IMG/VR virus record: IMGVR_UViG_3300037418_002116
Source: a virus
Lineage: Duplodnaviria; Caudoviricetes
Direction: 5' to 3' (one strand)
Length of the DNA stretch: 64,000 nucleotides
The translations under genes and the position numbers were made by a program. Positions 2,337 to 63,662 of the stretch are shown piece by piece (positions within the stretch are counted from its first letter, which is position 1; every line of letters starts with the position of its first letter). The notes under the pieces are model-generated. The model was given only the letters and a program-made list of their open reading frames with translations, did not search any database and had not been told where the DNA came from.

Positions 2337-2562
2337 TCAGAAGCATAAGGAATTGGTCAGGATTCATATCTATCGATTGCCCACATTCGGACCATGCGTC
2401 TATTGAATAGTCGTCAAATTCTTCCATATGAGCATTTCTCGGATAGATCACGAAACAATCGTTATCCAAAACCACATGGAAGTCTGGATTTTCTTCAATA
2501 TATTCAAGCAGTTCGTTCGGATCGTTGTTTATTTGTCGATAATCGAGATAATTAAGCGTCAT
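2302..2562 (-). CDS. Hypothetical acidic protein
   Basis: ORF overlapping the stop of the upstream gene. Confidence 0.6.
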   Translation of the reverse strand: MTLNYLDYRQINNDPNELLEYIEENPDFHVVLDNDCFVIYPRNAHMEEFDDYSIDAWSECGQSIDMNPDQFLMLLIEYIGGTVERC

Positions 2563-3449
2563 TTTTTGTACTTTCTCAAAACAGCTTCCATATCGGCAAG
2601 CACGTTGTCAATGGACACATCCACTTTCACGGCATCGGTCAAAGAGCCGTAGTGCGATTCAAGGCACTGCAACAGAAGTTCTTTGATCTTGTCTTCATCC
2701 GGCCCGTGTGGAAGAGAGGAATTGGCATAGAGCGTTTCAAGACTCTTCTCTTTCTCTTCGAACCACGTCTCGATTTGCTCTAGCGTCCAGTCGCCACGGC
2801 GAATCGACTTATAGATTTCCCGATCACGCTCTAGGTTTAGATCGCCAGTCGCCAAAATTTGTTCGCATTGCAGGCACAGGCGCACGACGTGATAGGCGAA
2901 CTTGGTATCCATCCCAAATTTCTCGATATCAGCGGCCCGTCGATCATTGCTCGAATTCTGCTTGTTCTTGATCTTGGCCATCTGTGCAAAGGCATAGCCA
3001 CGCAACTTGAACATGGCACCCTTATGCAGGAACAGCCTGCGATTCGAACGCACAAGCTCACCAACCGCCGTCGTGTGGATAACACAACGTCTAGGTGTGA
3101 AGATGGAATCGATCATATTCGGGTTGTTTTCCATCAGAAGTTGAAAGTACTTCACAATGGAATAAACCGAAATATCGTATTCCTTGTTCGAACCGTCTTC
3201 CGGTCGAATATGGTGTTGCTGGTATTGTTCAAATCGCTGGATTTGCTTGCCGAACCCAAAAATTTCCCCAGAAAGGTGCGGGAACACGATGTTTTTGGGC
3301 GGAATTGCAAAACCATAAAGGTCCACATCGGATGCCCCCGAGGAACAACCGTATGCTTCTGAACCCATGATTGTGAGGAAATGAATGTTGTCCGCAAGCC
3401 AGTGCGGCGGCGAGATTACTCCCGCCTTCTGTAATTTTTGAATTATCAA
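2559..3449 (-). CDS. Pol-beta-superfamily nucleotidyltransferase (RlaP/Nuc-transf type)
   Basis: GSEAYGCSSGASDVDLYG signature, DISVY, C-terminal KFAYHVVRL helix. Confidence 0.8.
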   Translation of the reverse strand: MIIQKLQKAGVISPPHWLADNIHFLTIMGSEAYGCSSGASDVDLYGFAIPPKNIVFPHLSGEIFGFGKQIQRFEQYQQHHIRPEDGSNKEYDISVYSIVKYFQLLMENNPNMIDSIFTPRRCVIHTTAVGELVRSNRRLFLHKGAMFKLRGYAFAQMAKIKNKQNSSNDRRAADIEKFGMDTKFAYHVVRLCLQCEQILATGDLNLERDREIYKSIRRGDWTLEQIETWFEEKEKSLETLYANSSLPHGPDEDKIKELLLQCLESHYGSLTDAVKVDVSIDNVLADMEAVLRKYKK

Positions 3450-4323: not shown

Positions 4324-4594
4324 CTTCGCAAAGCTCCGGAAATTGTGAAGGGATTTCTTCGCATATTGCGGTCTTGGCGGCTTCAAGATAATCGTCCCGT
4401 TCGTCGGGTTCAAAGGCACCGTCACCATTCGGATATGCGAAATAAATCTCATTGCCGAACGGACAATCGGCGGCGAAGCGGCCATGACGAAGGCGCAAAT
4501 AGCCAACCAACGTCTCTTTCCAGTACACATCGTACTGTTCCGGGCACATTTCGCATGTCAATTCGAGTTTCAGTTCTTCGGCAAGGGGTTTCAT
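4316..4594 (-). CDS. Hypothetical protein
   Basis: ORF with ATGA overlap. Confidence 0.65.
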   Translation of the reverse strand: MKPLAEELKLELTCEMCPEQYDVYWKETLVGYLRLRHGRFAADCPFGNEIYFAYPNGDGAFEPDERDDYLEAAKTAICEEIPSQFPELCEDD

Positions 4595-4974
4595 TGGAAA
4601 TCCTTATAGTTCACGATAATTCTTTCACTCCACTTTCCGGACTCCGGAACTATTGTGACATAACCACCGGTTCGATACGTTGTAGCAGTGCGACCATCAG
4701 CATTCTTGTAGGTGATATAGTGACTCGCTTTGCGCTTTTCAACGTCTGGATAGAAACCATCCTTGATCAGCCAATTATGGGCGATAACAAATGGATGATC
4801 CTGAACTGCCTCAACAAATTCCGGATTAAGCTTGCGAAAATAGCTGTACTTGCCGAAAAATTCAGAGTTGTCATAAACCTTCAAATAGGTTTCCAGACGA
4901 ACACCCTTCGGAACCATTCCTGTGACATGGCAGTAAGCCATGGCGAGTTTTTCGGCAGGCGTTAGCTTGATCAT
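4591..4974 (-). CDS. Hypothetical protein
   Basis: Start at MIKLTPAEK overlapping the upstream stop (ATGA). Confidence 0.65.
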   Translation of the reverse strand: MIKLTPAEKLAMAYCHVTGMVPKGVRLETYLKVYDNSEFFGKYSYFRKLNPEFVEAVQDHPFVIAHNWLIKDGFYPDVEKRKASHYITYKNADGRTATTYRTGGYVTIVPESGKWSERIIVNYKDFQ

Positions 4975-5234
4975 TTCCCCGAACACCTTGGGCAAAATGC
5001 CTTGGTCTTTTCCCGATTGAATTTCCAACCGTCTGCACGGGCCTGTCTGATGCATCCGCTTTCCGTTTGGCTGGCATACTGTGCCCAAGGCCCGCCTGTG
5101 TAATAGCGGGGTTTATTCGGGCAATTGGACCCATAATCACCGTCGCCAGTGTCACAGTACAGGTCCATTGTATAACAGCCAATGACTGGCATCAGTTGTG
5201 TCCCGTTTTTCCTGTTATTTCCAATGTATGCCAC
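4971..5234 (-). CDS. Hypothetical Cys-rich (zinc-binding) protein
   Basis: C-x-C spacing and terminal CPRC. Confidence 0.6.
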   Translation of the reverse strand: MAYIGNNRKNGTQLMPVIGCYTMDLYCDTGDGDYGSNCPNKPRYYTGGPWAQYASQTESGCIRQARADGWKFNREKTKAFCPRCSGK

Positions 5235-5509
5235 CCTGCCGTACCCGGCTTTCCCGCAATTTGCGTAGTGTATCCAAGCTCTGCCAACCGGGCGGCGAGT
5301 CTATCACGACGCTTTTCGCTGGAATAGATCGCTCCACACGAAATGGAGTGATCAGACCATTTACGAACCCAGAAATCGAAATCCAGTTCACCAATTTCCT
5401 TACGAAGGGCCTTGGCACTGGATTTGAACTTCATGGGAGAGGCAAAAGGGAACATTAATTGTGACCCGGCGTCGGTGCATACCACTGCATCATGACCAGC
5501 ACAATCCAC
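5192..5509 (-). CDS. Hypothetical protein (true start probably internal)
   Basis: ORF in minus-strand array. Confidence 0.5.
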   Translation of the reverse strand: MDCAGHDAVVCTDAGSQLMFPFASPMKFKSSAKALRKEIGELDFDFWVRKWSDHSISCGAIYSSEKRRDRLAARLAELGYTTQIAGKPGTAGWHTLEITGKTGHN

Positions 5510-5938: not shown

Positions 5939-5968
5939 TCGAATTCCTCGGTTGTCTCTACATTCGTG

Positions 5969-5997
5969 AATATAGACAGAATGTAGAGAATGTCAAC
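5969..5997 (-). promoter_or_regulatory. Early promoter with -10 box inside an 11-bp inverted repeat
   Basis: GTTGAC-N17-TATATT; TCTCTACATTC...GAATGTAGAGA flanks the -10. Confidence 0.8.
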
Positions 5998-6007
5998 CGG
6001 GAAAATT

Positions 6008-6280
6008 TTACATTTCGATTTTTATGCCAATTTTCTTTGCCGCCGTGATTATATCATGCGACTTGGCGATTACCATTTTGAAAAAATTATTAAAAGATTC
6101 CGTGTCGGGCGGATCAAATCTTAAAGGATCATCCCCAAATTCTCCGCACCAGACTGCCACGGAAAATTTTTTTGCCAGTTCGTAGTCTTCTTTGGACAAA
6201 TCTTTTAGGTGTTCGACTCGTGTGATCAACCGAAACTCTCCCCGGCCTTCTGTGCCTCTTGCTGATAGTAGGAATGCCAC
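6008..6280 (-). CDS. Hypothetical protein
   Basis: ORF in minus-strand array. Confidence 0.6.
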   Translation of the reverse strand: MAFLLSARGTEGRGEFRLITRVEHLKDLSKEDYELAKKFSVAVWCGEFGDDPLRFDPPDTESFNNFFKMVIAKSHDIITAAKKIGIKIEM

Positions 6281-11503: not shown

Positions 11504-12643
11504 TCAAATCATGTGTTTAGCTTTGAAGGTTTCCCATTTCAGCTTTTGTGTAGAGTTTTTCTCGATACGCTTCAAGATTGCCGTTCTAGCAGGCTGTTCA
11601 GCGAATTGAGCGAATAGAATCGGAACATCGTCCGGCTCAAATTCCTTCGCAAATTCTAGTGCAAACTTCTTACGATCACCCGAAGATTTTTGGTACACAT
11701 CGTTATAGATTGCATGATATTTCGATTCTTGGCGATTTACAGACGCCCAGAATTCTTGTTCAAATTCAATTACCCTATTAAGGTCTTCTTCTATCAGTAA
11801 TGATTTCAAGTCATCGATCTTTTCTTGAAGGATGGCTTGAACAATGTTGTATTCAGCGGAATTAACAAGTTCTTTCGAATTATGCATTAGGCAATATTCG
11901 GAAGTTTTGAATTTCAGCATGTGCCCGTTGTCGAAACGAAGCACATAACCTTCAATACCTTGTTGGTCCTGAACACTCGCAATAAATTGGGCGAGTTCCT
12001 TTTGACTATTATATGTTGCTACAGTGGGAATATCCCAATGACCGGCTAACTCTTTCATCTCTTCCGGATGAAAATATTCACCAGTATCATTATATCTTAT
12101 AGCAGTTAATATCAAATTGTCAATAGGATAATCTATAACTATCCTATTTTTACGGGAAGTCCACTCAAATATTGGTGTAATTTCTTCCTCATCACAGTAT
12201 TCTGCAAACTTGTTGTACTTCTTATTGGCATATGCAAAATACTCTGCATTATTTCCAACATCCGTGATACCCATCTTTGTTCCCCAACGGAAGCCGTTGT
12301 GCAGACGGAGTGGCGTGATCATGGAACCGTCAAGCTTTTCGAACACCGTGTGGGGTTGCGATAGGTCGATAAGGTTCGCTTGCGTCTCTGGACGTTCGTT
12401 GATGTTGAAAAATTTATGGAAACGACGGGACAATAATTTTCCGTCCGGAGCAAAGACAATGCCTCGGCACTCACGACGGAGAGCATCATTCAGAGTCGTG
12501 ACGGGCGGAAACGAATCCGGCATGTGGACCACATAGTTGATAACAATGTAATCCTCTTTGTCACAAACAATGAATTCGTCCCGGCCTTTGATAGCCGGGA
12601 GAACATCATCAATCGTGCTTATTTTTGGAAATTCGTAAAACAT
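11504..12643 (-). CDS. rnlA: RNA ligase 1 (T4 RnlA/gp63 family)
   Basis: ECRG, RRFHKFFN, EKLDGS (motif I), EGYVLRF (IV), LKFK (V). Confidence 0.92.
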   Translation of the reverse strand: MFYEFPKISTIDDVLPAIKGRDEFIVCDKEDYIVINYVVHMPDSFPPVTTLNDALRRECRGIVFAPDGKLLSRRFHKFFNINERPETQANLIDLSQPHTVFEKLDGSMITPLRLHNGFRWGTKMGITDVGNNAEYFAYANKKYNKFAEYCDEEEITPIFEWTSRKNRIVIDYPIDNLILTAIRYNDTGEYFHPEEMKELAGHWDIPTVATYNSQKELAQFIASVQDQQGIEGYVLRFDNGHMLKFKTSEYCLMHNSKELVNSAEYNIVQAILQEKIDDLKSLLIEEDLNRVIEFEQEFWASVNRQESKYHAIYNDVYQKSSGDRKKFALEFAKEFEPDDVPILFAQFAEQPARTAILKRIEKNSTQKLKWETFKAKHMI

Positions 12644-16400: not shown

Positions 16401-16862
16401 TTAAGAAGCGGTTCCGTTGCCCACGTCGAGAACGAAAATTTTCCGCTTGTTATACACGTTTTGGATGACACCGGGACGATCTTCGAACGCCATGAACACC
16501 GGGCCGTATGTCGCCTCGATATGGTCAAGTAGGTCGTGCTTGGCCTCCCAATCCGGACGATTGTCACCCTTAGCCCGCATGATCAGTACATGACGAGAAA
16601 AGTTGTTCTTGTCCAGCCATTGTTCCGTGATTTCTCGTTCTTCCTCGGAACGGGCAGTCATGATGATGCAAAGATTGTCGGGAAGTGTCGCCAGCGCATT
16701 GAAAATATATTGCGTCTGGGGAATTGGGTCGTCATTGACCGACAATTCCATGAAGGCTTTCCAGTTCTTTGGTTTCGACTTGATTAGAGGCAGTCGATGT
16801 GCCGAGTCTGAAATTGTTCCGTCAATATCCCAAACTATGATTTTCTTAATTATTTCCTGCAA
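16401..16862 (-). CDS. HAD phosphatase, PNK 3'-phosphatase (PseT C-terminal) type
   Basis: WDIDGT, MTARSE, MRAKGDNRPD..K, FEDR. Confidence 0.88.
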   Translation of the reverse strand: MQEIIKKIIVWDIDGTISDSAHRLPLIKSKPKNWKAFMELSVNDDPIPQTQYIFNALATLPDNLCIIMTARSEEEREITEQWLDKNNFSRHVLIMRAKGDNRPDWEAKHDLLDHIEATYGPVFMAFEDRPGVIQNVYNKRKIFVLDVGNGTAS

Positions 16863-18435: not shown

Positions 18436-18759
18436 TCAATCATCATCCATCTGGTATAGATCATACTTTTCGCAGATCACAGCCCAATTCTTCTTAATAA
18501 ATTCTCGGCATTCTTCTTCGGTCGAGCGCTTTGCCTTCAAGGTAATCCATGCGAAGTCACAAGGATCAGCTTCGGAAGGAACTTTCTTGACCATCAGGCG
18601 AATAAACCAGTCATCACCTTGACTGGAAAATCGATTCGGAGGCGTGATCGCACCGCACTTCTTCTTATCAGCCTTGATTTGTGTGGTCGGGTTCGGTTCG
18701 GCAATCGCTCGCAAACCGGTTTCCTTCTTTTCCTTCTTAAAACTTAGCTTCATGTTCAT
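18436..18759 (-). CDS. Hypothetical early protein
   Basis: GAGGAATG start downstream of the promoter at ~18775-18803. Confidence 0.7.
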   Translation of the reverse strand: MNMKLSFKKEKKETGLRAIAEPNPTTQIKADKKKCGAITPPNRFSSQGDDWFIRLMVKKVPSEADPCDFAWITLKAKRSTEEECREFIKKNWAVICEKYDLYQMDDD

Positions 18760-18820
18760 TCCTCTTTGTCCAATTTATATAATAGAAATATATAGATGTC
18801 AAGAGGCGAATCTACAAACG

Positions 18821-19165
18821 AAAGTGGGCTTGTTTCGCACTCCACCGCATAGAAGACGGTTGGAACGAAACAAGCCCTTTCTGGCTTGGCCACGAAGCCG
18901 CTTTCAAAGGAACATGGTGCGAACAGAAATTCTACTCCGATGGTGAATCTCTGCTTTATGTTCCGTCTCGGCGCTCGGATTGTTGTAACGGGCCGTAATC
19001 CGGTAGCCCAAATATACACTCACACTTTGTTTCACACGCAAGCCCGGCAAGGTGACCAATTATTCGGTCGAAGCCTTTGTGATTTTTGCCAATCACATTT
19101 CTGTTGTGGCGGTGCCGGTCCCGCTTAGCGGGGGCTTTTGCCCATGCCGCATTGATAGCGGCTTC
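18821..19165 (-). ncRNA. Candidate structured ncRNA (hairpin array)
   Basis: No ORF with an RBS; 12-bp perfect stem GGGCTTGTTTCG/CGAAACAAGCCC, GGAACAT/ATGTTCC and further stems; G-U pairs favour the minus strand. Confidence 0.5.
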
Positions 19166-19273
19166 AATCAACAATCAATCTAGGTTTCGGCGCTTTGTCA
19201 AGCATGAAAACAACTTAGAAGAAAACACACCTACCTTTTCTTAATGGGGCCTGTTCAGTTCCCCGGTTTCTAT

Positions 19274-19427
19274 AAAAAAGGGTTGGTGAACGTCCTGCAC
19301 CGTTCTTTAATCCCCATGTGTTCGGGGAACCCACAAGAAACCAGTCCGCTGACATCAATTTCTGACCGCCTAGGCTGGCTTCCTACTTCCTTTCCGAGAA
19401 AGCGCTACTTCCGTCTCGCTCCCTACA
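19274..19427 (-). ncRNA. Candidate ~150-nt small RNA
   Basis: Promoter at 19434-19462, stems AGGAAGCCAG/CTGGTTTCTT, TCCCC/GGGGA, GAACG/CGTTC, ends GGGTT/AACCC + T6. Confidence 0.55.
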
Positions 19428-19433
19428 GTCATC

Positions 19434-19462
19434 AATATAATCACCATTTTTCTGGTGTCAAC
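19434..19462 (-). promoter_or_regulatory. Early promoter firing into non-coding DNA
   Basis: GTTGAC-N17-TATATT. Confidence 0.75.
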
Positions 19463-19498
19463 AGGAAAAATTCAAAAAATGAAAATTTCTGGAACAAT

Positions 19499-20104
19499 TT
19501 ATGATTCTATAATCTTTTCAATGACTTCCCAAATCTCGTCTTCATCCATCACTTTGGAGAACGGACATACCGATGGAGCATCTATCGCTTTGATAATCCT
19601 AGCGTTTTCTTTGAAAATGTGTTCACGACGGAGGAATGTGATGGTCGGGACAGGGTATTCGATTCTATGGAAAACATCCCGAGTGAGATTGTAGGTCTGT
19701 CCGGTTTCCACCGTGAAGTCGGCTAGACGATGAATCATGCACTCACCAAGGAATGCCGGTTCTTTGCCAACGTCATCCTTTTTGCATGACACTTCATAGA
19801 GTCCATATTCGGCAAAACACACACTCTCATATGTGTAAAGCGTATTCATCAGAGCGCCTTTGATGACGGTCGATGAAAAATCGTAGCGGTGATCGTGAAT
19901 TTCCTCTTGATCGAGGATTGGCATAACGTCCGGATGATAGAAGTGGAGGCGTTCGACGGCATTCAGTTTGAGTTGGATGAAGCCAAGTCCAAAATAATTC
20001 GGTTTACCCAGAGTTTTCAGCCGGGCAATGTCAAGATATTCGTGTTTAGGCATTTTTTCCTTCATTAGAAATGAAAATGGCAACGAAGAAAACTCCGCTG
20101 CCAT
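19499..20104 (-). CDS. Hypothetical protein, possible cupin fold
   Basis: IHDHRYDFSS...G...N and HRI metal-binding pattern. Confidence 0.6.
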   Translation of the reverse strand: MAAEFSSLPFSFLMKEKMPKHEYLDIARLKTLGKPNYFGLGFIQLKLNAVERLHFYHPDVMPILDQEEIHDHRYDFSSTVIKGALMNTLYTYESVCFAEYGLYEVSCKKDDVGKEPAFLGECMIHRLADFTVETGQTYNLTRDVFHRIEYPVPTITFLRREHIFKENARIIKAIDAPSVCPFSKVMDEDEIWEVIEKIIES

Positions 20105-20109
20105 TTTAT

Positions 20110-20718
20110 TTAGTTGTTCACCACAAGTTTCAGCTTAGGTTGCTGAACATTCAATGTGCCGGGTGCAAATCCCGGTAGGAACTGTTCCCAAAATGCGTCG
20201 TCAATCGTCATCGGATACCGCTTACGAATTTCGAGCATCTGATAGAATGATGGTTCAAAGATTTTTTTCTTTGGAGCCCATCTACCAACTGGCAAAGATG
20301 CACCTTTCATGAGATTGCATGAAGGACATGAAGCCACAACATTTTCCCATTCGGTCTTACCACCTTTAGCTCTTGGAATCACATGGTCATCCGTGATGGA
20401 ATTCGATTGATTCCTTTGAGTAGTCAAAGGCATATCGCACCAGAAGCACTTACCAGAATCACGATAGTACAAGGTTTCCTTGTTCAACTGAATCTTGTTC
20501 GTGAATTTTCTGGCTGAATTGGTAACGATCACTGATGGCCAACGCAAATCCGTTCTTGACGGAGTCAAGATTGGCCGATCATACCAATGCACAACATTGT
20601 TCTTACCAAGCAGATATCCCACAATGGCGTCACGTGCCGGAATAAGCGACAACGGAAACACCGAATGCGGCATAAAATTCTTGTTCAGGACCAATGTTCT
20701 CAAATTTACTTCTGACAC
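20110..20718 (-). CDS. HNH endonuclease (McrA-like)
   Basis: TLVLN N-terminus, YRDSGKCFWC, DHVIPRAKGG, NVVASCPSCN. Confidence 0.9.
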   Translation of the reverse strand: MSEVNLRTLVLNKNFMPHSVFPLSLIPARDAIVGYLLGKNNVVHWYDRPILTPSRTDLRWPSVIVTNSARKFTNKIQLNKETLYYRDSGKCFWCDMPLTTQRNQSNSITDDHVIPRAKGGKTEWENVVASCPSCNLMKGASLPVGRWAPKKKIFEPSFYQMLEIRKRYPMTIDDAFWEQFLPGFAPGTLNVQQPKLKLVVNN

Positions 20719-31564: not shown

Positions 31565-31866
31565 TCCTTGTCTGGCGGCTCTTTATTGCCCCATATGATG
31601 TAGTTAGGATAACTACCAACCATATATCTTACTATAATGTTTTTAAGAACTGGATCGATGTTTCCTAGAGAATCTTCCAATTTTTTGCGAGACTCGAGAT
31701 AGCTTTGTTCTTTAGCTTCGCAATTTTTGAAACAATCATCACAAATGACGACTGGATCATCCAAGCCATCCCCGAATTTTATGAGGGATTCAGCCATCGC
31801 TTCTTCGTCAGACCGTTCTTTTTCAAAAGTCCCGAGACACTGTGCACAGGTGAATGTATTGCTCAT
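31561..31866 (-). CDS. Small zinc-binding protein
   Basis: CAQC...ICDDC. Confidence 0.55.
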   Translation of the reverse strand: MSNTFTCAQCLGTFEKERSDEEAMAESLIKFGDGLDDPVVICDDCFKNCEAKEQSYLESRKKLEDSLGNIDPVLKNIIVRYMVGSYPNYIIWGNKEPPDKD

Positions 31867-32888
31867 GAGCCAGTCATTTCGTTGGTTTCGTCGGCTGTTC
31901 CGTGGAACCAATGCTTAGCTGTCTGAACATGGTCTTTCCGGACATACTTCCCGACATGATTACGAAAATCTCGCCATGTGAAATTCCCTCTGTTTCGAAG
32001 AACAAATCCCTCGGAACTTCCGTAGTCGGAATTGGCTGCGATTTTTCGGATGATTTTTTCGTCATAGATTCCTTCATACAGGACGGGAACCGACTGAATT
32101 CCCAAAAGCTGAAACCATTCCATCGTGTCGTCCCAAGACAGGCATTCCAGACCATTCCAGATGGAAAAGCCAAGGAAGAAGGATGGCAGATTTTTGTAGG
32201 CTATCGAGTGCTTGGCGAACAGATTCTCACCGCAAATGCGCCAGTCTTCCGGCAGATCATACGCAAAATTCTGTGCGAAATTTTTTGCCCAATCCCGTGA
32301 CCAGTGATTGCGGCCATCGATGGAGCGGGCGTGAAGATAGCCATCCGAATAGATCGTGGTGTTTTCGCCATCCATCTTTTCCGTCACAACCACTTGATTT
32401 CCCTCGAAAATTTGCATCGAAGAAATCATGCGGTCGTCATCGTTCATGCCGGGCGAGAATGGCAGATGGTAGGTTCTCGGATATTTCATGCGATTGGTGA
32501 AAAGATCGAGAACGCCGCCTTCCTTCAAAATTTTCTGAACGGATTCGTCGTTAAATAATTCACCACGGACTCTTTGCCCGTTTTCCAGAACGATGTTGCC
32601 CCATTTGTCATAGATCACGTCGGAATAGAAATGTTCCGGCAGAACCGGCTTGGTGATTCCGGCACAGACTCGAATCGCCTCTACAGAGATAAGAGTCTTC
32701 TCACAATCCTTGTGATGTTCAGTGCAAACGGAAGCACCATTATCAAGATAATAACCACCATCAGCGAAAAGCCTTCGCTCCAATATATGGTGAGCATCTT
32801 TAGCAGGATTGCCACACACAACACATTTATGATGATCCCGAGCAAAAACGCCTTCACGAAAATCATCCCTTGATAAGAGCTTGGACAT
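31863..32888 (-). CDS. HNH domain fused to Rnl2-like RNA ligase
   Basis: N-terminal CVVC..DAHHI..CTEHH; C-terminal KYPRTYHLP, TEKMDGEN, EGFVLR, KYVR. Confidence 0.88.
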   Translation of the reverse strand: MSKLLSRDDFREGVFARDHHKCVVCGNPAKDAHHILERRLFADGGYYLDNGASVCTEHHKDCEKTLISVEAIRVCAGITKPVLPEHFYSDVIYDKWGNIVLENGQRVRGELFNDESVQKILKEGGVLDLFTNRMKYPRTYHLPFSPGMNDDDRMISSMQIFEGNQVVVTEKMDGENTTIYSDGYLHARSIDGRNHWSRDWAKNFAQNFAYDLPEDWRICGENLFAKHSIAYKNLPSFFLGFSIWNGLECLSWDDTMEWFQLLGIQSVPVLYEGIYDEKIIRKIAANSDYGSSEGFVLRNRGNFTWRDFRNHVGKYVRKDHVQTAKHWFHGTADETNEMTGS

Positions 32889-38705: not shown

Positions 38706-38891
38706 TTACCGCTTCTTCTGCCTGAATTCTTCGGCTTCTTCACGGGTATCGAAAACGGCAATAACTTGCCACTTCAAATCCGTTTCCTTGCCTTCGGTTA
38801 CTGTTGTCAGATTCCACACATTAAAGCGGCCATCGTGACGGGGTGCAACATCGGACGGTAGATTGTCCGTAAACCAATTATTTGTTGTCAT
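38706..38891 (-). CDS. Hypothetical protein
   Basis: ATGA overlap. Confidence 0.65.
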   Translation of the reverse strand: MTTNNWFTDNLPSDVAPRHDGRFNVWNLTTVTEGKETDLKWQVIAVFDTREEAEEFRQKKR

Positions 38892-40078
38892 TGATATTCT
38901 GTAGTCTCGCCTTTACGGTTTAGATAATCATCGGATACGTATTTCAAAATGATACGACCTAATTCGTCATCATAGCATTCTTCTGCGGGAATTGCAACCA
39001 CTCCCTCACGAATATTCGAAAGAAACATGGATTTTCCATCAACATATTGAGCGATATCAGCTTCATTGTTCACGATATCCAAAAGAGGAACAGTTGGAAT
39101 TCCAATAGCATTCAAAAGATCATATTTTTCAATGGCATCGATGTAACGATCACCGATTTTGATATCAAAGCCACGGAATTCTGGCTTCTCCAATCCATAA
39201 TGCAAATCCTGAATACCCTTGCCGAAAATTTCGCCAAGAATGAATATTTTTTGGTCGCTTGCATTCAATTCCCAAACCAATCGGGTTAGTTTGGTGAAAA
39301 GAGAATTTGCTATAACTGTTTGAACGTAAATGTTGTTTTTATTTGCCAAATTGTTTTTGAAAACCAGTCCCTTGCTACCAAGGCCCTTTGAGAACACAAC
39401 AAATGAACCTTTGACAGCATTGAACAATTCATCATGCTGATATTGCGGAAGCCAGCCGATGCCACAAAATGTGCCGTGCAGCTTTTCCGTGAGATAAATT
39501 TTCTTGCCCGTTAGGTCCAGCTTGCCGGGATGTTTTTTGGCATTCTCGATATCGTACTGAACCGTGTTGTGGTTACCGATGTACAGAAGATCGCCAGACA
39601 TGGAAGCTGGCAACTCGGGTTCATATTTCGTTATTCCGAGAATTTCGGAAACATCACGGCCTAATGGTGACGGAGCGTCAACAGCGTCCAAATACAGAAC
39701 AACTTTCCCATCGCTGGTTTCAATCCAGCCTTCATCGACATGCAAACTGTTCGCTTGTTTGACGGGGAACAAGATGCCTTCCGACGTGATGCCACGCAAC
39801 TTGATTGGCTTTACCCGGTTTCCGAGCTTGCCGGACAAGTAGCCAATGCCCTTCTCTTCATTCCAAAATCCCATTCGCAACAGGTTTTCAGGGACAACAG
39901 AATCAGCCTGAACATAGACAACCCAATCGAATGGTTTGTAACGATGTGAGCCGTCATCAAGCTTTGCCGAAACAATCTTGTAGTCGTAGCCTTTGAGTTT
40001 GATGATACTTAGACGGTCTGCATTTGGATGGTCTGTTACGGCTTCAACAGCCATAATCTTAGTTTCAAATTTACTCAT
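38888..40078 (-). CDS. RNA ligase, DRB0094/Rnl5 type with N-terminal OB domain
   Basis: HPNADRL, LRGITSEG, TEKLHGT, GEIFGKGIQ, REGVV, LKYVSDDYL. Confidence 0.92.
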   Translation of the reverse strand: MSKFETKIMAVEAVTDHPNADRLSIIKLKGYDYKIVSAKLDDGSHRYKPFDWVVYVQADSVVPENLLRMGFWNEEKGIGYLSGKLGNRVKPIKLRGITSEGILFPVKQANSLHVDEGWIETSDGKVVLYLDAVDAPSPLGRDVSEILGITKYEPELPASMSGDLLYIGNHNTVQYDIENAKKHPGKLDLTGKKIYLTEKLHGTFCGIGWLPQYQHDELFNAVKGSFVVFSKGLGSKGLVFKNNLANKNNIYVQTVIANSLFTKLTRLVWELNASDQKIFILGEIFGKGIQDLHYGLEKPEFRGFDIKIGDRYIDAIEKYDLLNAIGIPTVPLLDIVNNEADIAQYVDGKSMFLSNIREGVVAIPAEECYDDELGRIILKYVSDDYLNRKGETTEYQ

Positions 40079-49103: not shown

Positions 49104-50216
49104 TTACAAGTTTATGATGCTATCCAGCCATGCCGAACGGCGACGTTTCAGTTCCTTGCCTAAATCCGGGCCGGGAACATAACCTTCCGCCATCAGATGT
49201 TCGGCAGTGATTGGCCACACAAACGCCGAATCACGCTCAAAGAAGGCATTCAGATTTTGCCAGTTCTTTGCCTGTTTCCAACGAACAAGGTCCGTAACAC
49301 AAAGCTTATGATAGTCGCTTTTCTGACATTCTGAAATGATTTGGAAATTTGTTGTTCTGTCATGGTTCAGCATGAAATAGATTCTGACAAAATCCAGTTC
49401 CGCCGATGCAGCATGAAACCGGTTCTTCATGATATCGAGAACCCGTTCATCGTGATTGTACAGAGCAATGAGTTTCAGAAGCCACAGATATTCATGATTG
49501 AAATCTTTGACTTGCGGATAAAAGCCGGGATCGATATCCAGAACCGGGCCAATGGTGTTGACCATCAGCCGCACAATCGTGAAGGCTTTGTCTTGGCTTA
49601 GAATTTTTTGCAGTTCAGCCCATATGCGTTCGCCCGAAATATTTTTCAGACCGAAGGCGAGCTTCCGGATGATTTCCAGATTTTCGGTCGTGGTATCGTC
49701 CCAAACGACCGTCTTCATGCGCCCGAGGAAGCGGAAATACCGCATGATTCGAAGATAATCTTCCTCGATACGGGCCTGTGCATCACCGACAAAGCGGACG
49801 ACGCAATTCTTTAGGTCCGACTCGCCGCCAAAATAGTCATAGATTTTTCCGTCCTTATCCATGAACATGGCATTGAACGTGAAATCCCGCCGTGCAGCGT
49901 CAAGCTTCCAATCTTCAACGAATTCGACTTCCGCATGACGACCGTCCGTTGCCTTGTCGATCCGGAGCGTTGTAACCTCAAAGGCATCCTTGCCTATTAC
50001 AACGGTCACAGTGCCATGCTGTAGGCCCGTGGGCACTACGGTGTATCCAAGTGCCTCGAAAGCCATGATCACGTCCACGGGCTTCCCCGTGGTCGCTATA
50101 TCGATATCTTTTGGGTCTTTGCCTAGCAGATAATCACGGACAGCGCCGCCAGCGATTCGGGCTTCAAAACCCGCATTTTCAAGGATTGTTATCGCTTGGT
50201 GGGCTTGTTGGAGCAT
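49104..50216 (-). CDS. cca: CCA-adding tRNA nucleotidyltransferase (class II)
   Basis: GGAVRD...KDIDIAT, GLQHGTVTV, EVTTLR, DAARRDFTFNAM, EDYLRIMR, SGERIWAEL. Confidence 0.9.
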   Translation of the reverse strand: MLQQAHQAITILENAGFEARIAGGAVRDYLLGKDPKDIDIATTGKPVDVIMAFEALGYTVVPTGLQHGTVTVVIGKDAFEVTTLRIDKATDGRHAEVEFVEDWKLDAARRDFTFNAMFMDKDGKIYDYFGGESDLKNCVVRFVGDAQARIEEDYLRIMRYFRFLGRMKTVVWDDTTTENLEIIRKLAFGLKNISGERIWAELQKILSQDKAFTIVRLMVNTIGPVLDIDPGFYPQVKDFNHEYLWLLKLIALYNHDERVLDIMKNRFHAASAELDFVRIYFMLNHDRTTNFQIISECQKSDYHKLCVTDLVRWKQAKNWQNLNAFFERDSAFVWPITAEHLMAEGYVPGPDLGKELKRRRSAWLDSIINL

Positions 50217-54744: not shown

Positions 54745-54774
54745 TCGAATTCCTCTCTTGTCTCTACATTCATC

Positions 54775-54803
54775 AATATAATGAGAATTTAGACGGAGTC
54801 AAG
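54775..54803 (-). promoter_or_regulatory. Early promoter cassette (paralogue of 5934-5997)
   Basis: CTTGAC-N17-TATATT plus ~40-bp shared leader. Confidence 0.8.
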
Positions 54804-55074
54804 AGGGAAAATCCGGAATGGGCTGTTTCATGGTTTTGGAATACCATTCCAGATATTTCTTTCGACCGCCGTTCGATGCCTCACAGAATTCCGGCCAACC
54901 GGAATCTGGATATCGACAAATGCCATTCATCATCAATTGGAAAGTGGTGGCTTCCTCTTGGTAAAGGTTATACTTTACCCATCGCAGTTCATGGTTCTGC
55001 ATATAGGCAAAGTATCCAAGCCCACTCGAAATGGCGACAAGAACAAAAATGCAGATGTTTTTAACCATCACCAA
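54799..55074 (-). CDS. Membrane-anchored hypothetical protein
   Basis: N-terminal TM. Confidence 0.6.
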   Translation of the reverse strand: MVMVKNICIFVLVAISSGLGYFAYMQNHELRWVKYNLYQEEATTFQLMMNGICRYPDSGWPEFCEASNGGRKKYLEWYSKTMKQPIPDFPS

Positions 55075-63589: not shown

Positions 63590-63662
63590 TGGCTGAGAGG
63601 GAGGATTCGATACCCCATTGTCCAGCGACAAAGCCGGAAGTCCTACCTTAGACGACCTCTCA
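63590..63662 (-). tRNA. Non-canonical tRNA-Gln(TTG)-like leader of the large ncRNA
   Basis: TGAGAGG/CCTCTCA+GCCA; TCCGG-CTTTGTCG-CTGGA; T-arm GGGG-TATCGAAT-CCTC. Confidence 0.68.

Follow-up and report, generated by a model that had tools for sequence, protein, structure and literature searches.

What does a phage keep in a stretch of 739 nt without open reading frames (ORFs), in a region where neighbouring genes are separated by only 3-6 nt? The question arises at positions 18760-19498 of the window, by which we mean the whole 64,000-nt stretch of DNA analysed here, a fragment of the genome of a large, T4-like phage. The gap is flanked by tightly packed ORFs on the minus strand. At its 5' side lies an ORF of 201 aa (19499-20104, minus strand), cupin-like by structure, and at its 3' side an ORF of 107 aa (18436-18759, minus strand). 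The first-pass annotation had picked out some 345 nt of this region (18821-19165) as a candidate large structured RNA read from the minus strand, and had kept an origin-type DNA structure as the alternative. We find that the interval 18814-19129 (minus strand) is a real and conserved element of about 315 nt, which probably operates at the RNA level and belongs to a new family. The reading that we favour, and to which we give an even chance of being right, is that this interval is the conserved 3' core of an early unit without ORFs, and that it specifies a non-coding RNA predicted to depend on its fold and to act in trans.

The surroundings of the gap suggest a connection with RNA metabolism. 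The window encodes four RNA ligases, a PNKP phosphatase (16401-16862), a CCA-adding enzyme (49104-50216), and RlaP (2559-3449), together with 14 tRNA genes, all on the minus strand (Rfam and ARAGORN), and a GOLLD RNA. One of the ligases is of the Rnl1 type of T4 (11504-12643); the three further ones are at 31863-32888, at 38888-40078, and, as a weak match, within 11504-12643. Across positions 10000-50300, genes for RNA repair and tRNA maintenance form a dense set. The GOLLD RNA (RF02032; 62604-63008, minus strand) is clearly real (137.5 bits, E 9e-38), and it was missing from the scan at gathering threshold because its score is just under the gathering score of 150. A permissive scan gave, in addition, a tRNA-model match of 32.4 bits at 63593-63662 (minus strand), called neither by ARAGORN nor by the gathering scan; lying upstream of GOLLD, it may represent a tRNA-like gene that has diverged. 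The two proteins encoded on either side of the gap give no clue to RNA binding in the Protein Atlas ('hypothetical' and cupin-like fold). The GenBank relatives of a 434-aa neighbour are found solely in T4-type phages. The 107-aa protein has one GenBank relative, in the T4-like Caulobacter phage Cr30, and is also encoded on a 261-kb contig. Cr30 carries the 107-aa gene without a gap upstream of it.

In the data that we searched, the element has a single homologue, the locus L001 on IMG/VR contig 3300044658_000070 (59 kb), which can be aligned colinearly with the window along 8.6 kb, with nucleotide identities of 70-88%. The core of L001 spans positions 5096-5358 of its contig, and its comparison with the window is what narrows the conserved element to 18814-19129. 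A protein route through the neighbouring genes, which included scans of IMG/VR, led to L001, to some distant relatives, and to Cr30. A search of 50,697 GenBank phages in distant mode gave no DNA match. The exact-pattern scans of IMG/VR, of the JGI metagenomes, and of 185,579 GTDB genomes gave one true match, the contig of L001; the other pattern matches were checked by blastn, by eye or with a covariance model and judged to be due to chance. We also searched the full records of six large related phages, of which three have a completeness rating of 100%, with two covariance models, R1 for the first and R2 for the second of the domains described below, and these found nothing except the record of L001 itself. 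ENA contigs that encode P0002, a 73% identical 107-aa protein, probably hold a third version of the element. Our literature search found no description of such an RNA. At positions 5957-6031 of the L001 contig there is a weak match to the tmRNA model (20 bits, E 1e-4), where ARAGORN finds nothing; the match lies within a longer stretch that stands in place of about 900 nt of small genes of the window.

A complete relative of 242 kb at 58% identity (L002; IMG/VR 3300038443_000660) has other contents in the same slot (4535-5043). The slot starts with the same early promoter; the non-coding sequence behind it, about 430 nt long, is a different one and comprises a Shine-Dalgarno sequence and then an ATG-TAA start-stop, a unit of 85 nt repeated 1.9 times (4691-4852), and a canonical terminator. 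A motif of 30 nt, AAATGTTCGTAAATGGTTTC..TTAGCT, is common to the repeat of L002 and to positions 4894-4925 of L001, where it occurs in one copy between a conserved block (block B, below) and the core. The slot behind the shared promoter is thus a mosaic, in which the window, L001, and L002 carry different inserts.

The promoter in question is a strong early promoter of the sigma-70 type, TTGACA-N16-TATATT (19434-19461, minus strand), with 11 of 12 consensus matches. Such sites number 10 in the window against 0.73 expected, and this one is kept in L001 and in L002 (4545-4572). It faces about 610 nt without a conserved reading frame, and lies about 300 nt upstream of the core. A near-copy (77-82%) of positions 19405-19461, that is of the early promoter and the first transcribed bases, occurs at 54753-54812 (minus strand) and leads to the Shine-Dalgarno sequence and ATG of a 101-aa ORF. 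The early promoters of the phage therefore share an extended consensus.

The 300 nt between promoter and core are mostly unalignable with L001, apart from one block of 81 nt (19271-19191). They start with a variable module (19275-19427, minus strand) that is purine- and GGA-rich, ends in GGGUU/AACCC followed by U6, differs from L001 by large indels, and lies outside the conserved core. GGA occurs 8 times in this module against 3.95 expected (p 0.026), and 5 times against 2.65 in its unalignable counterpart in L001. The module may be a sponge of the CsrA/RsmA type, or only a degenerate leader rich in Shine-Dalgarno sequences, and its U6 (19276-19281) is a possible weak terminator between the promoter and the core. 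The 81-nt block, block B (19191-19271, minus strand), is 84% identical to L001 4779-4857 by blastn and has at its end a TTGACA that lacks a convincing -10. How far the block lies from the core varies, since L001 has about 240 nt of extra sequence in between. We considered this TTGACA (19201-19196) as an internal promoter of the core and rejected it, since its -10 has not been kept between the phages, which also place it at distances from the core that differ by about 190 nt. The 3' limit of the unit is marked by a promoter-like site of the 107-aa gene (18771-18802, minus strand), made of TTGACA (18802-18797) and an A/T-rich -10 region. L001 and L002 have this TTGACA too, immediately after their hairpins; its spacing from the -10 region varies, which leaves the strength of the site uncertain.

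The first-pass annotation listed nine stem pairs, all of which are present on the minus strand at the positions it had given for them, and they differ in how far they extend to L001. The three 5' hairpins (19120-19165) are GCCGC/GCGGC (19162-19158/19150-19146, minus strand) and GGGC/GCCC (19143-19140/19135-19132, minus strand), both specific to the window, and CCCGC/GCGGG (19132-19128/19124-19120, minus strand), of which only the arm GCGGG is conserved; as hairpins they have no counterpart at L001 5060-5095. The conserved element starts near 19129 with domain 1 (D1; 19043-19129, minus strand), a leader followed by a three-way junction. The leader, UAAGCGGGA, is invariant. P1, a closing helix of 5 bp (CCGGC/GCCGG, 19118-19114/19048-19044, minus strand), is followed by a conserved joiner of 17 nt, ACCGC(C/A)ACAACAGAAA. 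The hairpin arm P2 (GTGATT/AATCAC, 19096-19091/19084-19079, minus strand) and the helix P3 (AAGG/CCUU, within the domain on the minus strand) complete the junction, P3 carrying the hairpin P3a (GACCGA/TTGGTC, 19069-19064/19059-19054, minus strand). Folded separately, the sequences of the window and of L001 both take this architecture as their minimum-energy fold, and L001 scores 60.3 bits against a D1 model derived only from the window. Between the window and L001, compensatory changes turn A-U into C-G in P2 and A-U into U-A in P3a, and both hairpins are shorter in L001.

Domain 2 (D2; 18881-19047, minus strand) is modelled with the helices P4 (GGCUU/AAGCC, 19044-19040/18887-18883) and P5 (GGCUAC/GUGGCC, 19008-19003/18893-18888), which close a junction with P6 (CGGATT/AATCCG, 19002-18997/18981-18976, with a conserved loop of 15 nt) and P7 (GCCG/CGGC, 18972-18969/18900-18897), all on the minus strand. 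The P7 arm is freely variable in length: about 70 nt with two stems in the window against a 12-nt GNRA hairpin, GGGA-GUGA-UCCC, in L001. The window-specific extension (18909-18964; GGAACAU/AUGUUCC around CAGAGAUUC/GAAUUUCUG), absent from L001, has an outer stem GGAACAT/ATGTTCC (18964-18958/18915-18909, minus strand) and an inner stem of 9 bp, CAGAGATTC/GAATTTCTG (18953-18945/18932-18924, minus strand). The indel at the tip of the arm (about 50 nt) falls exactly on a helix end. The window scores 72.3 bits against a D2 model derived only from L001, and the pairs counted in D2 are all standard in both sequences, with one change from C-G to U-G and one two-sided change. The fold of D2 is nonetheless provisional, because its invariant G/C-rich segments allow other pairings (GGGCU/GGCCC, GGCCCGU/ACGUGGCC, and GCGGG/CCCGU), some of which are picked by RNAalifold. 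Hence, the 'nested long stems' of the initial description overstated the case for this domain, where several pairings are mutually exclusive. The broader proposal of a large structured RNA holds in part: there is a conserved element whose changes respect several hairpins, but the 5' hairpins and the GGAACAT/ATGTTCC arm are not conserved.

The element ends with the hairpin P8 (18877-18826, minus strand; 18814-18880 including its tail), which is followed by the 107-aa gene and consists of a perfect 12-bp stem, GGGCTTGTTTCG/CGAAACAAGCCC (18877-18866/18837-18826), and a further 7 bp, with an internal loop and a bulge. Its energy is -32.5 kcal/mol (z -6.7) in the window and -32.2 kcal/mol (z -6.4) in L001. 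Both phages have the same stem sequence, in runs of 38 and 30 nt, and differ at 4-5 positions of the 9-10-nt loop. The tail reads ACUUUCGUUUGU in the window and ACUUUCAUUUCU in L001, with 7 U in 12 nt, broken by C and G. P8 is a stable G+C-rich hairpin, as a terminator should be, and escaped the terminator consensus scan because the loop limit of that scan is 8 nt. P8 and its tail are probably the end of the transcript.

These features bear directly on the most serious rival, a cis-acting element of transcription or of the mRNA, in which P8 would be a terminator or insulator and D1/D2 a leader or attenuator tuning read-through into the 107-aa gene and the early genes that follow it. P8 ends 23 nt before the promoter-like site of the next gene, and the slot of L002 likewise ends in its canonical terminator before the same kind of promoter. 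The element could even be riboswitch-like, since CAAGCC (18888-18883) has two possible partners, the GGCUU of P4 and the GGCUUG that opens P8; both lie in invariant sequence, and a scan finds the hairpin CAAGCC-AGAAAG-GGCUUG. However, this alternative hairpin of 6 bp cannot compete with a terminator of -32 kcal/mol, and control of read-through would be redundant because a promoter-like site stands between P8 and the gene. A plain terminator needs pairing only, and the constraint on P8 exceeds what termination needs because the sequence of its stem is invariant over 68 nt. The riboswitch and leader models of Rfam give no match. We thus regard a role in cis as rather unlikely.

An element that works as DNA is a further alternative. 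Several observations point to the minus strand as the RNA strand: the promoter, the U-rich tail, the orientation of the neighbouring genes, the fold energy, and the G-U pairs. The latter, which would be A-C on the plus strand, occur in GACCGA/UUGGUC, in GGCUAC/GUGGCC, and in CAGAGAUUC/GAAUUUCUG, and are distributed over P3a in the window, P4 in L001, and P5 and P8 in both; on this point the initial suggestion of a minus-strand RNA, which had been based on such pairs, agrees with the promoter and the tail. The sense fold is better than the antisense one by 3.5-3.7 kcal/mol in both phages, a difference small enough to suit a replication origin, a set of protein-binding sites or another site on double- or single-stranded DNA, whose inverted repeats would serve as binding sites or as cruciform-type hairpins. 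The invariance of whole helices in sequence would also fit recognition as DNA, and T4-type origins (oriF/oriG) combine a promoter with non-coding downstream DNA, a layout that counts in favour of this alternative. Yet the compensatory and G-U-compatible changes fit pairing of RNA from one strand, and the locus has neither direct repeats above 11 nt nor iterons, no A+T-rich unwinding stretch (GC 0.47-0.51 against 0.42-0.44 in the flanks), and no turn in GC skew, with genes running the same way on both sides. We rejected an origin of the iteron/DUE type for the same features (the longest direct repeat is 11 nt in two copies, and the cumulative skew is monotonic), and found nothing specific in support of the origin-type structure that had been offered as the alternative. 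A DNA-level function in general appears improbable.

The folding statistics are uneven. The locus has 24 stems of at least 6 bp against 16.6 +/- 4.3 in dinucleotide shuffles, a number reached by 14 of 300 shuffles. The fold of the 298-nt core of the window is of ordinary stability (z -1.46 on the minus strand, -1.04 on the plus strand), the one of the L001 core has a z of -2.33, the three-way junction of D1 a z of -3.1, and the whole gap a z of -3.7 (20 shuffles). Among the paired columns of the comparison between the window and L001, 74 are identical, 8 substituted, and 10 gapped; the unpaired columns number 79, 31, and 72, respectively, a comparison that is partly circular because the structure was chosen knowing both sequences. 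Three of the 46 pairs change on both sides yet stay paired, one changes from C-G to U-G, and one breaks. In alignments fitted to the model, this covariation is not significant, as 122 and 253 of 500 shuffles match the observed values with two sequences. The homologue search and covariation check that had been proposed for the locus thus yielded one homologue and three compensated pairs, but no significance. The shared model lies about 25 kcal/mol above the minimum-energy fold of each sequence. The conserved single-stranded segments have only chance-level complementary 9-mers with the rest of the window or with L001.

The ordinary z-scores of the overall fold are what one would expect of decaying filler, a dead gene or leftovers for instance, in an early region that is hyperplastic, with hairpins arising by chance and similarity to L001 reflecting ancestry only. 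The mosaic nature of the slot among the three phages fits this too, as does the finding of two family members only, despite scans of viral, metagenomic, and genomic data. The pattern of identity argues otherwise. The cores of the window and L001 share identical runs of 19, 15, 38, and 30 nt, and their differences concentrate in loops and hairpin tips. Where the gap is truly variable, divergence has gone too far for alignment. At 4-fold synonymous sites of three flanking genes, the window and L001 are identical at 113 of 178 positions (63.5%), and at this identity 740 nt should contain 0.05 runs of 19 nt, 3e-4 of 30 nt, and 9e-6 of 38 nt. Such runs are not neutral, and we conclude that the core is under selection at the nucleotide level. 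A tract of recent recombination is disfavoured because the two longest runs, which make up the invariant stems of P8, lie on either side of a loop that has diverged. Moreover, no ORF fragment in the gap matches a protein family, and the translated similarity follows no consistent frame. We therefore give little credence to the idea of decaying filler.

The same comparison speaks to coding. On the evidence of the sequence, the core is non-coding, as the first-pass annotation had claimed for its block: the reading frame is neither conserved nor does it have relatives in the databases. The ten small ORFs of the gap (43-100 aa) have no match in Pfam or PHROG. The translated similarity between the window and L001 is spread over all six frames and switches frame along an ORF of 87 aa. 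The 72-aa ORF (18956-19174), whose conservation as a protein had been named as grounds for abandoning the RNA, has no ORF of at least 40 aa at its counterpart in L001. Neither it nor the 87-aa ORF has relatives among 5.8 billion proteins, and an 80-aa ORF on the plus strand has only two matches, both of them repetitive proteins of 939 aa. L001 has an ORF of 73 aa spanning P5-P8, which shares its frame with the 87-aa ORF of the window for about 20 codons and then differs because of indels of 50 nt and 1 nt. One or more small proteins, for which one may cite two ORFs on the transcribed strand, of 72 and 87 aa, and the 73-aa ORF of L001, are hence a highly improbable product of the locus, given the missing counterpart, the brief shared frame, and the lack of relatives and family matches in protein collections.

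We compared the locus with known RNA families. Rfam 15 (4227 models) at gathering threshold identifies only tRNAs in the whole window, and a permissive scan of 18600-19700 has its best hit at E 3.3, with implausible eukaryotic or sRNA models at 11-17 bits. The L001 core matches nothing in Rfam at E up to 0.1, and neither ARAGORN nor Rfam finds a tRNA or tmRNA within 18760-19498. The family that had not been recognised at first thus has no match in a cmscan against Rfam either. RNase P, SRP, 6S, T-box, group I and II introns, and retrons were considered and rejected, as they give no Rfam signal and the partner genes that they require are missing.

In the favoured reading of a trans-acting RNA, the host RNA polymerase would transcribe the unit early in infection, P8 would end most transcripts and shield their 3' end, and the folded body made of D1, D2, and P8 would act in trans, with a protein of the host or of the phage as its most plausible binding partner. 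We suggest protein binding because the invariant parts include single-stranded joiners and helices that are kept in sequence, not just in pairing. Against this reading stand the ordinary stability of the core, the cost of the shared model relative to each minimum-energy fold, the competing pairings of D2, a covariation short of significance, the variable sequence and possible weak terminator that separate promoter and core, the interrupted U-tract behind P8, and the absence of the core from the complete related genomes that we searched. A bolder version of this proposal, which we hold to be doubtful, makes the core the founding member of a new class of phage RNAs, protein-sequestering (decoy) or catalytic, produced as soon as infection begins and linked to the phage's unusually large toolkit for RNA repair and tRNAs. 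An example would be a decoy or inhibitor of a host defence nuclease that targets RNA. On this view, RNA modules would be swapped into the slot that follows the cupin-like gene, since the sets found in the window, L001, and L002 differ.

If true, an early-expressed RNA of about 315 nt outside the catalogued families would be a further sign that host take-over by such phages relies on structured RNAs as well as on proteins. Large phages of the soil lineage of the window carry many RNA genes, and the window alone has 14 tRNAs and GOLLD. The element is a candidate for follow-up, and its practical value is limited for now because it is a prediction from sequence with two copies to compare.

How does the element compare with known systems? 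Like riboswitches and attenuators, it has a structured, conserved domain followed by a terminator hairpin and a short segment that can pair with either. Unlike them, it has a promoter-like site before the ORF (TTGACA, 18802-18797), an alternative helix of only 6 bp, no match to an Rfam model, and a domain about 300 nt away from its promoter, so that we rejected this class. It recalls HEARO/omega-RNA (IscB) as a structured RNA of a few hundred nucleotides near a gene for an HNH nuclease (20110-20718; PF01844 and PF14279). However, this protein of 202 aa has HNH domains only, without RuvC, the cupin-like gene of 201 aa sits between the nuclease gene and the candidate RNA, and the HEARO model gives no match; this candidate was also rejected.

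P8 resembles intrinsic (Rho-independent) terminators as a G+C-rich, stable hairpin with a U-rich tail at the end of a unit, close to the next promoter. It departs from them by its length of 19 bp, broken by an internal loop and a bulge, its interrupted U-tract, and a stem invariant over 68 nt.

With GOLLD (RF02032), the putative RNA shares the nature of a large, ornate, phage-borne RNA that does not code for protein, and both are in the genome of the window. In contrast to GOLLD, it has about 315 nt instead of about 800 nt and no adjacent tRNA, and cmscan does not match the GOLLD model to 18600-19700 even at E up to 10. The T4 RNAs C and D (species 1 and 2) are structured, non-coding RNAs of 119-139 nt that lie inside a tRNA cluster and are processed from its precursor. 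The present element is set apart from them, by description, with its core of about 315 nt in a unit of about 610 nt, its position 16 kb from the nearest tRNA gene (35677), and its own terminator-like hairpin. What it has in common with the T4 RNAs is that it is non-coding and structured, and that it belongs to a T4-type phage, in which it follows a promoter of the early region in a genome with tRNA genes.
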